From a virus (lineage: Duplodnaviria; Heunggongvirae; Uroviricota; Caudoviricetes), in IMG/VR virus record IMGVR_UViG_2534682161_000019: a DNA stretch of 44,580 bases. One strand, written 5' to 3'. The notes below the pieces were generated by a model, which worked only from the letters and a program-made list of their open reading frames with translations, was not told where the DNA came from and did not search any database. Below, one piece after another: positions 11,999-22,828 of the stretch. Numbering within the stretch: the first letter of the stretch is position 1; every line of letters starts with the position of its first letter. A program made the position numbers and the translations under genes.

Positions 11999-12689
11999 GT
12001 GACTGAATTAACCAAAGAGCAATTAATCGAAGAAGCCAAATTAAAAATAGCGATTGCGAAATGCCACCCCAATTCAGGGATGGCACGGGTAGAGGGCGAG
12101 TTATTCAAAATTGCACTGGCATCGCTGGTAGCAGAACCGCTGGTGCCCGTCATGTATAAAGGAATGAAACTGTTAACAAAAGAGGGGCTTGAGCTTATTC
12201 GTGACGGTATTGCGGAGGCTACGGGACTGGAAGCAATGTGTATGGCTGATGCTTTGCTGTCTGGGGGGGGGGGCAGTGCCGTCAGTGCCGAAAGAAATGT
12301 ATTGGCAGGATGCACCAGTTGAAAGTAGCAGCAAAGCAGCTGCATACGCTACAGGCTGGAAAGCCTGCCGCGAAGCCATGCTTCAGTCCGGAAACTTTCG
12401 GGATAATAAGAATTCGTCAACCAACAATTTTCGGGAAATCCCGGAAACGTCAACCAGCTCTCAGGGAACTCCGGCTGGCTGGATAAGCTGTAGTGATGCA
12501 GTTCCTGCTGAATATTGCGATGTGATTCTGCGCGATGATCTCGGGAATGTATTCCCCGGTTCATGGGATAAGGTTTTTTGCCCCACTCGTGGCGGGAATA
12601 AGATGGCTTTTGTGGACAAAGACGGCGTCGAAGTAGAGAGCTCAACCCACTGGATGCCGCTACCAGAATCGCCGAAGGTGGTGAAGTGA
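11999..12689 (+). CDS. DUF551-like protein interrupted by a frameshift at a G11 homopolymer (possible pseudogene, phase-variable gene or sequencing artefact)
   Basis: ORF 11999-12322 and ORF 12189-12689 are in different frames and join across GGGGGGGGGGG at 12263-12273; removing one G gives a continuous ~229-aa protein ending ...WMPLPESPKVVK. Confidence 0.45.
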
Positions 12690-16257: not shown

Positions 16258-16629
16258 ATGCGTATAGAGTTTGTTTTGCCTTACCCGCCGACGGTGAACA
16301 CCTACTGGCGACGTCATGGCAGCACATATTTTGTATCAAAAGCCGGTGAGCGTTATCGCCGTGATGTGGCGTTCATTGTTCGCCAGCAGCGGTTGAAATT
16401 AAACCTCTCCGGAAGGCTGGCGATAAAGATTATTGCAGAGCCACCGGATAAGCGCCGTCGTGACCTGGACAATATCCTGAAAGCACTGCTGGATGCGCTG
16501 ACACATGCGGGGCTGCTTATAGACGACGACCAGTTTGATGAAATCAATATTGTGCATGGTCTGCCTGTTTGCGGTGGGCGACTGGGTGTGAATATATTCG
16601 TAATAAGAGGATGTAATGATGTTGCGTGA
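16258..16629 (+). CDS. rusA: RusA-family Holliday junction resolvase
   Basis: 123 aa; [12 protein letters not shown]...[27 protein letters not shown] matches RusA (PPS.N.YYR...RRRDLDN...DAL..AG...DD). Confidence 0.8.
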
Positions 16630-16990
16630 TATTCAGCTGGTTATGGAGCGGTGGGGAGCATGGGCAGCAAGTAATCATGAAGATGTAACATGGTCCTCGA
16701 TAGCTGCTGGTTTTAAAGGATTAATCCCGACTAAAGTGAAATCACGTCCTCAGTGTTCTGATGATGACGCCATGATAATTTGTGGCTGTATGGCACGATT
16801 AAACAAGAATAATCAGTATTTGCACGATTTGTTGGTGGATTATTACGTAGGTGGAATGACATTTATGGCTCTTGCACGTAAGCATAGATGTTCTGATGGG
16901 CTTATTGGTAAAAGACTTTATAAAGCTGAAGGTATTATTGAAGGAATGCTTATGGCTCTGAATGTCCGGTTAGATATGGATATGCGGTAG
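16616..16990 (+). CDS. Q: late-gene antiterminator Q (phage 82/21-type, Quu-like)
   Basis: 124 aa; [18 protein letters not shown]...[14 protein letters not shown]...LLVDYYV... resembles E. coli prophage Quu antiterminators; immediately upstream of the late region. Confidence 0.7.
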
Positions 16991-17137
16991 GGATATATAG
17001 TGACGAGGGTTATGTTTTCCGTGTTTATAATTAATATGTTTATTTTTTGATGGTCATGAATTTTATGGAAGGTAAACAAAATGTTGCCAGGTGAATTGAA
17101 AATATTGATAATCAATCATCATCATTAAATAAAAGGA

Positions 17138-17961
17138 GTGTTTATGTGGATTGTGTTAGCACTGTCACTGTCAACTCTCAGTTGGCATAAGGTAGTGGCT
17201 TTTTCATTGTTGACGGTGTCTGTTGTCCTGGCTGTGCTTAATGATATTATTGATTGGCCGGTGTTGTTTTTTGTTGCTACAATCGTTTTTTTTATTATTT
17301 TGAAGTTCAACTGGAAATATAACGCCTGGGCTAAATCCATATATGAAGCTGGCATAGTTTTATCAGCCATAGCATTATCTTTCCATTTATGGCCAGGGTT
17401 TCACAATCCTGTAGTGCTAAAGTCTGTCACTGTCGGACCTCAAAGCACTCCCTATACAATGTATTTTAATTTTGATAAAGCGCTGGTGCCATTTTTGTTA
17501 GTCCTGTGTACAGCTTCTTTGTTTAAAAAAGAAGTGAAATCAGAAGTGTCTTTGTGGAAATGGGGGGCTCTGTTGCTCTCTGTTCCTCTTATACTGTTTT
17601 TGGCTGTTTTTTTGGTGGGTTAAAGCCAGAGATTCATTTTCCAGAGTGGTTGCCAGAGTTTATATTGGCTAATTTGTTTTTTGTGTCTCTGGCAGAGGAG
17701 TCATTATTTAGAGGGTATATTCAATCACGGCTATCAGAAGTGACGTCTCCATTGGTTGCGTTAATTGTGGCGTCTTTGTTGTTTGGTTTTTATCACTATT
17801 CAGGTGGTGCTTTACTTGTATTATTTGCCACGTTATCTGGTGTTGTGTATGGATTGTCATGGATGTGGAGTGGGTGCTTGTGGGTGGCAACCCTTTTCCA
17901 TTTTGGTCTGAATCTGTGTCACTTGTTATTCTTTACCTATCCATTCTTAAAACATAATTGA
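17138..17961 (+). CDS. CPBP-family intramembrane metalloprotease (CAAX protease/Abi domain), disrupted by a frameshift in a T7 run
   Basis: ORFs 17138-17623 and 17554-17961 overlap in different frames; second part carries CPBP motifs EESLFRGY, FGFYHY, HFGLN; adding one T to the T7 run at 17607-17613 restores a single ~275-aa multi-TM protein; AT-rich. Confidence 0.65.
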
Positions 17962-18102
17962 TTTTTTTCTATGGCTTTAAATTTATAACACTGAAAAATA
18001 GCAGTATGTGACATTTGCATGAAAAATATGCACGGCAAAGCATTTACGTACGTAAAAAATCATGTATGCTTTTAAGAGTGGTTATTTCACCGCATAGCCT
18101 GA

Positions 18103-18126
18103 ACCCGCCTCTGAGCGGGTTTTTTG
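18103..18126 (+). terminator. rho-independent terminator after the CPBP gene
   Basis: ACCCGC-CTCTGA-GCGGGT hairpin followed by TTTTTTG. Confidence 0.55.
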
Positions 18127-18248
18127 TGCCCGCAAAGTAGCGCAGTGCGTTAAATGTGCTGGTAGTTATTAATACTGGTCTTTCTGCTTGCTGGCTTTTT
18201 AGACAAGAGTTATTGGTATGTCACGTTAACCAGAAAAGGGAAAAAGAC

Positions 18249-18596: not shown

Positions 18597-19146
18597 ATGG
18601 CTAATACTGTAAAAATATCCAGCTGCGAGTTAATCAACGCTGATTTCCTGGAATTTATCCAGACCTTACCGGAAAACTCTGTCGATCTGATAGTCACAGA
18701 CCCGCCATACTTTAAAGTGAAGCCCGAGGGCTGGGATAACCAGTGGAAGGGCGACGATGATTACCTGAAATGGCTGGATCAGTGTCTGGCGCAGTTCTGG
18801 TGGGTATTAAAACCCGCCGGAAGTCTTTACCTGTTCTGTGGTCATCGCCTGGCATCTGATATCGAAATCATGATGCGTGAGCGCTTTAATGTGCTGAACC
18901 ACATTATCTGGGCGAAGCCGTCCGGGCGCTGGAACGGGTGCAACAAGGAAAGCCTGCGGGCGTATTTCCCGGCAACAGAGCGCATTCTGTTTGCGTCCGG
19001 GAGATTTGGTTGCCGACTTTTTCATGGGGTCAGGCTCCATAATAAAAGCAGCGCTGGCACTTGGGGGCATGGCGTTAAGCGTTGAACTTGAGTCTGAACG
19101 TTTTGAGCATACTGCGGGTGAAATAGTTACGTTGGCAGATAATTAA
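18597..19146 (+). CDS. DNA methyltransferase (N6-adenine/N4-cytosine type, DPPY motif), apparently frameshifted or internally deleted
   Basis: N-terminal frame contains TDPPYF; the SAM-binding motif (PGDLVADFFMGSGS...ALALGG...) is in a different frame ending at 19146; the combined length is short for this family. Confidence 0.55.
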
Positions 19147-19260: not shown

Positions 19261-19336
<76 letters not shown>

Positions 19337-19339
19337 TAT

Positions 19340-19414
<75 letters not shown>

Positions 19415-22700: not shown

Positions 22701-22828
22701 TTAATGTAATTGATACAAAAAAGATGATGGTTGTGGCCAATTTTTGTTCGACATCTTTGTGTGGCGGCATTTCTTTACAAAAAAAACAGAATCACTTCTG
22801 TTCAGAGGGGTATGTGGAGGAGGCGTAG

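Follow-up and report, generated by a model that had tools for sequence, protein, structure and literature searches.

The window analysed here (the whole stretch of DNA, 44,580 nucleotides) carries, past the antiterminator gene Q of a lambdoid prophage, a copy of an accessory gene for a CPBP-family intramembrane protease whose reading frame is broken at a run of seven T. The best explanation, to which we assign a probability of about 80%, is a null allele produced by a 1-nt slippage deletion. We propose that in Escherichia coli STEC 7V (O2:H25) replication slippage shortened a T8 run to T7 at codons 155-157, that translation would stop after 159 residues, upstream of all catalytic motifs, and that the catalytic domain would remain in the -1 frame, with no good start of its own. 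The T7 allele would represent a genuine and recent loss-of-function mutation of a dispensable accessory gene.

A CPBP gene broken at a T7 run

The ORF list of the window contains an upstream ORF (17138/17144..17623) that overlaps a downstream ORF in another frame (17554..17961), just as the initial annotation described. The true start of the CPBP gene is the ATG at 17144, located 5 bases past an AGGAG at 17134-17138, and its equivalent is the RefSeq start in relatives. The homopolymer at 17607-17613 is exactly T7, and adding one T to it joins 17144-17623 and 17554-17961 into a single ORF of 272 aa; the earlier proposal that one T would fuse the two ORFs into a multi-TM protein was thus correct, the length having then been put at ~275 aa. 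The repaired protein differs from WP_000265262.1 solely by R245C (99.6% identity). The features of the gene are as follows:

17144..17623, + strand: 5′ part of the CPBP gene, coding for a truncated product of 159 aa (residues 1-157 native, then LVG and a stop)
17286..17293, + strand: first T8 run, coding V-F-F; intact in the window and a slippage hot spot in other genomes
17607..17613, + strand: T7 run, site of the 1-nt deletion; intact alleles have T8, coding A-V-F-F-G within a TM helix
17614..17961, + strand: 3′ part of the CPBP gene in the -1 frame, residues 158-272, with the entire PF02517 catalytic domain
17695-17712, + strand: motif 1, EESLFR (E185/E186/R190)
17782-17796, + strand: motif 2, FGFYH (F214-H218)
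17875-17877, + strand: codon of Cys245, the residue of the window allele
17899-17913, + strand: motif 3, HFGLN (H253-N257)

The three CPBP motifs are found where they had been claimed, on the downstream ORF. The frame break falls at codon 157, inside a TM helix and 5′ of every catalytic residue. Because all three catalytic motifs lie 3′ of the break, the window allele, which has no intact ORF for the protease, should be null, and a null phenotype is what we would expect of T7 alleles. The 159-aa product is predicted to contain 4-5 TM helices without any catalytic motif. It corresponds to GenBank EGE65428.1, 'abortive infection protein [E. coli STEC_7v]', and matches positions 1-159 of PHROG 13291. 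The region was also said to be AT-rich, which agrees with a GC content of 35-40% over 16800-18150 compared to ~50% in the flanks.

Position of the gene between Q and a putative late block

The elements that surround the gene are the following:

16616..16990, + strand: antiterminator Q gene of the PF06530 type (QuuD/DLP12-like), directly upstream of the cargo slot
17084..17112, + strand: sigma-70 promoter-like site (TTGCCA, 17 nt, GATAAT; 10/12 consensus positions), candidate promoter of the CPBP gene
18043..18070, + strand: putative late promoter pR′ of this Q type (-35 TTTACG at 18043-18048, 16-nt spacer, -10 TATGCT at 18065-18070)
18102..18126, + strand: intrinsic terminator, AACCCGCC-loop-GGCGGGTT followed by a U tract

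The Q gene carries the annotation 'antiterminator Q family protein' in relatives, PF06530 was detected on four related loci (L008-L011), and its product shares 84% aa identity with Q of phages ev207 and PhiR11_1. The location that the initial annotation gave for the CPBP gene, between Q and the lysis genes, is supported. The candidate promoter of the CPBP gene is kept in 9/9 loci, with a -35 element TTGCC(A/T) and a -10 element GATAAT, including one locus in which IS1 is inserted upstream. In strain HCP4S3_I4, IS1 lies between Q and the CPBP gene (L003, 4001-4902).

Downstream of the gene, the boundaries of homology with other prophages delimit two segments. Loci that share the same Q type and carry other cargo (an ORF6N gene in L012, a reverse-strand porin in phages ev207 and PhiR11_1) are homologous to the window from exactly 18043, and are unrelated to it upstream of TTTACG. 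Prophages with another Q (a DUF1133-type Q in L013, another antiterminator in L014) show homology with the window only from 18101/18104, at the terminator stem. Three different Q families are followed by this conserved terminator at an equivalent position, and its predicted fold reaches -18.3 kcal/mol (z=-3.28), a stability matched by 0/200 shuffled sequences. In the block 18043-18126, a conserved TTAAGAGTGGTTA follows TATGCT and precedes the terminator. Since a promoter-like segment specific to the Q type abuts a generic terminator, this block is probably the pR′/tR′ late leader. We considered the possibility that the CPBP gene lies inside the pR′-tR′ leader and is driven by the late promoter, and ruled it out because the Q-type-specific block starts at 18043, downstream of the gene. 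The CPBP gene would instead sit between Q and pR′, in the nmpC slot of DLP12-type phages, and would not be part of the late transcript. In DLP12, the lysis operon is served by a Q-controlled promoter of its own (PMC7918800), and a paper on pR′ (PMC6266700) gives no sequence for this Q type; our promoter assignments rest on consensus matches and on the comparative boundaries described above. The terminator that had been noted behind the gene is a real hairpin with a U tract, but it is not private to the gene: it appears to be a conserved tR′-like terminator of the late leader, located after a pR′-like promoter, that would also end CPBP transcripts.

The nmpC/ompC porin moron of DLP12-type phages offers a close parallel, as it occupies the same slot, after a QuuD-type Q and before the TTTACG...TATGCT...terminator block, and is likewise cargo of the lysogenic-conversion type that codes for an envelope protein. 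The two proteins are unrelated, and the genes differ in orientation: the CPBP gene runs in the direction of Q, the porin gene against it. In other prophages the slot contains an ORF6N gene, a porin gene or nothing. The CPBP gene displays the traits of a moron, namely the promoter-like site at 17084-17112, a terminator (common with the late leader), a low GC content and presence/absence polymorphism at the slot. Further downstream, a DNA methyltransferase gene (18597-19146) has lost ~500 nt internally in comparison with L012-L014 and now consists of ORFs of 162 aa and 51 aa; N96 and OkiPb01695 carry the same remnant, labelled there as a partial pseudogene. Between this remnant and the lysis region, the prophage carries tRNA-Thr (TGT) at 19261-19336 and tRNA-Gly (TCC) at 19340-19414, which were the only two matches found with Rfam.

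Family, structure and conservation of the protein

The product of the gene is a member of the CPBP/Rce1-type family. Searched against the Rce1-like Pfam family PF02517, the downstream ORF alone gives 71.1 bits (E=9.5e-20) and the repaired protein 68.7 bits (E=5.5e-19), for a gathering score of 22.4, with residues 169-258 of the repaired protein aligned to positions 3-92 of the 93-position profile. Across 54 aligned homologues, with identities down to ~45%, the EExxxR, FxxxH and HxxxN motifs are present and residues E185, E186, R190, F214, H218, H253 and N257 are invariant, so that the family assignment made in the initial annotation, and the alignment check of the motifs suggested with it, both hold. 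NCBIfam returned only sub-threshold matches, to the myxosortase and ABC-CPBP models, hence no specific subfamily name applies.

Because a sequence search of the PDB produced no match at E<=10, we relied on a predicted structure and Foldseek. The AF2 model of a 97%-identical protein (P0001) has a pLDDT of 94.9 and ~9 helices. The three best Foldseek matches are to Rce1 (4CAD) and SpdC (6U0O), with probabilities of 0.80-0.99, E ~0.03 and TM-scores of 0.4-0.5, which are weak statistics; the next PDB matches have E>2.5, which indicates that the top matches are specific. Rce1, the type II CAAX prenyl endopeptidase that founded the CPBP superfamily and the top Foldseek match, has in common with the prophage protein the PF02517 domain, the EExxxR/FxxxH/HxxxN motifs and a multi-helix membrane fold. 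The identity between the two is only ~15% with a TM-score of ~0.4, and the N-terminal half of the family found in the window has conserved motifs of its own. Bacteria are not known to have prenylated CAAX substrates, so the substrate must differ from that of Rce1.

The N-terminal half, outside of the Pfam domain, contains residues that are invariant in the subfamily (H81, G85, N88, S101 and N109-x-D-K-A-x-x-P-F117; residues 78-119, window 17380-17500) and that map in the model to a region with short beta strands. They constitute a conserved and undescribed feature of the Enterobacterales CPBP subfamily.

Distribution and earlier records of the gene

The gene is already known, being annotated in RefSeq and represented by PHROG 13291 (E=1e-176). 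By megablast it was found in 572/5426 complete E. coli genomes, nearly always annotated as 'CPBP family intramembrane glutamic endopeptidase', and the carriers include O157:H7, O55:H7, O145, O111 and O103. WP_000265262.1 and WP_000265267.1, from E. coli lambdoid prophages and belonging to PHROG 13291, are the same gene of 272 aa at the same position past Q; relative to WP_000265262.1, the window copy has T7 rather than T8, is truncated and carries the minority allele Cys245. A second family, PHROG 26389 (135 positions), matches residues 2-135 of the frameshifted 135-aa ORF of the window, its out-of-frame N-terminus included, and is built on the frameshifted downstream ORF. Exact look-ups of the 135-aa GTG-start ORF and of the haplotype-B C-terminal ORF returned no record.

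Neither megablast nor tblastn found a match in a phage collection of 50,697 records, and the gene was seen only in prophages and chromosomes. Homologues with ~50% identity are solitary chromosomal genes across Enterobacterales, located in unrelated housekeeping surroundings, for instance on an island in Salmonella, between cupin and permease genes in Dickeya, and between modF and galE in Hafnia; no conserved partner gene was found beside these three. Literature searches on CPBP or CAAX proteins of prophages, E. coli or O157 yielded nothing on this gene.

Recurrent length changes at the T runs

Where intact relatives have T8 in the alignments (A1 and A2), the window has T7, so its frameshift corresponds to the loss of 1 nt from the intact gene. 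The comparison with intact homologues that had been recommended at the outset was extended to complete E. coli genomes, and T8 was present in all of them, in 20/20 close haplotypes and in 60/60 records sampled evenly over the 572 carriers (80/80 in total). Beyond these genomes, T7 occurs in contigs of SRR31814702, SRR29217271, SRR12693838 and ERR4314115. In the last three, the same 159-aa fragment is encoded on a second haplotype, which is distinguished by four silent or intergenic SNPs, Arg245 and T6 instead of T7 past the stop. In all, 5-6 contigs carry T7 compared to 455 (R245) and 78 (C245) contigs with intact proteins of the same type, and variants account for ~1% of contigs. The run can also expand: a 167-aa product (P0126), found on 7 contigs, derives from a T9 (+1) form of this second tract in an O157-type allele. 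Strain HCP4S3_I4 has T9 at the first tract (17286-17293), and NCBI annotates its gene as a frameshifted pseudogene; a 220-aa product with a TTG start (P0004) begins directly after this tract.

Position 245 is R or K in 29/29 homologues, which had first led us to read R245C as a second mutation acquired after pseudogenization. This reading was ruled out, since the repaired window protein is identical to a C245 protein (P0122) found intact on 78 contigs.

These observations identify the T tracts as slippage or mutational hot spots, not as a phase-variation locus, and the pattern fits the sporadic loss of a dispensable accessory gene, not a contingency switch or programmed recoding.

Sequencing error, switching or loss of the gene

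The initial annotation left three options for the broken frame: an inactivated gene, a phase-variable gene or a sequencing error. The 454 platform miscalls homopolymers, and for a time our leading idea was an artefact, in which 7V truly has T8 and an intact gene, and the run was undercalled in the 454 consensus. The window is 100% identical to AEXD01000008.1, from E. coli STEC 7V (stx2g, isolated from healthy cattle), whose genome (AEXD00000000) was obtained with 454 Titanium FLX only and assembled with Celera (PMC3491183). Against its two closest relatives, only two genes of the window are frameshifted, and each breaks at one of the longest homopolymers (T7/T8 and G11/G10), the second being:

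11999-12689: DUF551-domain gene, split into ORFs of 107 aa and 166 aa by G11 at 12263-12273

SRR058105 is an early accession and probably represents the original 454 run of 7V; its Logan contig (L026) shows a further 1-nt deletion at window position 17295 (ATTATT to ATATT), which the GenBank assembly does not have and which illustrates the error profile of 454. Intact ORFs for the exact repaired protein with C245 are also common. A C-terminal fragment that is diagnostic of T7 together with Cys245 is nevertheless found in two Logan contigs, one from SRR058105 and the other from SRR31814702, a much later run in which contig SRR31814702_549 is 100% identical to window 17300-18216 (917 nt), T7 included. 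The same run reproduces the G11 frameshift in the DUF551 gene, and the frameshifted 107-aa DUF551 product occurs on at least 24 contigs from many unrelated, independent assemblies, so G11 is not a 454 error. Strain OkiPb01695 has G10 and an intact protein of 229 aa. T7 also occurs, on the other haplotype, in the three further independent runs described above. The artefact was downgraded once the T7 and G11 matches of SRR31814702 were seen; plausible as it was for a 454-only source, we now consider it unlikely. The confirmation provided by SRR31814702 would fail if this run were old 454 data deposited late. Real length variation is much more plausible at the poly-G tract of the DUF551 gene than at the T run. 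Homopolymer length differences are common between near-identical prophages: an intergenic A8 run at window 22779-22786 is A7 in strain N96, and the frame of a Hok/Gef gene in the related OkiPb01695 prophage (L005, 17594-17760) is broken at a G5 run where the window (14759) has G4.

The gene could also be a contingency locus turned ON and OFF at the T tract, or the full-length protein could be decoded from T7 by -1 ribosomal frameshifting or by transcriptional slippage on U7. Repeated changes of the tract, seen as T7 in two haplotypes and as T9 in another, and the variation of the other T8 tract of the gene are compatible with a switch, and, as read from the sequence, a -1 slip on GUU-UUU-UUG would bring back the native frame. 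Contingency genes of Haemophilus, Neisseria and Campylobacter likewise switch frame by +/-1 changes of a coding homopolymer; unlike them, the present gene has rare variants, a short tract and tract residues that are not conserved. T8 was fixed among the 80 sampled complete genomes, T7 and T9 are confined to ~1% of contigs, and the F-F pair that forms the tract is replaced by FL, LL or AL at the same columns in homologues, counts and substitutions that do not resemble those of a slippage-based phase-variable gene. For phase variation by slippage in mismatch-repair-proficient E. coli, a tract of eight T is moreover short. As for recoding, the heptamer U-UUU-UUG exists only in the mutant allele, and the 77 nt downstream of the run form no stable RNA structure that could be stimulatory (z=-0.73 vs shuffles); with T8 ancestral, no recoding signal for T7 would be expected to have evolved. 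A phase-variable or recoded gene is, in our opinion, very improbable. We give a slim chance to a milder version, in which the two T8 tracts would make the protease a low-frequency heritable ON/OFF locus whose loss is recurrently selected in some hosts (for example in cattle commensal niches), a reading suggested by the independent occurrence of T7 on two haplotypes, of T9 on a third and of T9 at the other tract. In a weaker form of this idea, the 159-aa N-terminal fragment may have a scaffold function of its own. SpdC is a catalytically inactive CPBP protein, and the fragment could similarly keep a non-catalytic role in scaffolding or partner binding, the allele being selected and not just tolerated. 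The subfamily-invariant residues of the N-terminal half, the presence of SpdC 6U0O among the best structural matches and the recovery of the same 159-aa product on two haplotypes point in this direction. The rarity of the fragment, the absence of additional adaptive changes in T7 alleles and the invariance of the catalytic motifs in the family, which implies selection on enzyme activity, argue against it, and we regard such a role as extremely improbable. Inactivation by slippage is the best supported of the three initial options.

Possible function of the intact protein

We propose that this lambdoid-prophage accessory ('moron') gene encodes a polytopic inner-membrane endopeptidase of 272 aa, of the CPBP/Rce1 glutamic type, with a predicted active site (E185/E186/R190, H218 and H253/N257) that, in the intact form, lies in a C-terminal four-helix core. 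A conserved sigma-70-like candidate promoter of its own suggests that the lysogen would probably express the gene without relying on late transcription. The intact protein would most likely be a glutamate/histidine intramembrane endopeptidase that acts on a peptide substrate in the membrane or periplasm.

CPBP/'Abi' proteins have been linked to immunity, and the Gram-positive members of the same domain family include the bacteriocin self-immunity proteins PlnI and SkkI as well as SpdC/LyrA (lysostaphin resistance A; 6U0O) and MroQ. Some RefSeq copies of the prophage gene are even named 'lysostaphin resistance A-like', and SpdC is among the top structural matches. In contrast to these Gram-positive systems, neither the window nor the vicinity of the chromosomal homologues contains a bacteriocin gene, a two-component system or a SagB-like partner, and no bacteriocin or export/processing genes were found in the window or beside the Salmonella, Dickeya and Hafnia homologues. 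The prophage family also differs from SpdC in that its catalytic residues are kept intact. The name 'abortive infection protein' used in GenBank derives only from 'Abi', the old name of the Pfam family. PADLOC defence models gave no match at E<=1, and the neighbours of the gene (Q, a small hypothetical gene, the DNA methyltransferase remnant and the tRNAs) provide no linkage to defence genes in the window; no defence genes were seen beside the chromosomal homologues either. By analogy with its relatives, our best guess is an envelope-modifying or immunity-like role.

As a rare null allele of an annotated prophage gene, whose truncated products were already deposited (GenBank EGE65428.1, PHROG 26389), the finding itself matters little. 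It is of modest use in illustrating that independent public read assemblies can serve to check homopolymer frameshifts in drafts obtained with 454 only; both suspect frameshifts of the window (T7 and G11) proved reproducible. The other point of modest use concerns the intact gene, which codes for an uncharacterised and strongly conserved CPBP protease present in ~10% of complete E. coli genomes, including O157:H7. Its product could reasonably be proposed to serve in lysogenic conversion by acting on the envelope.
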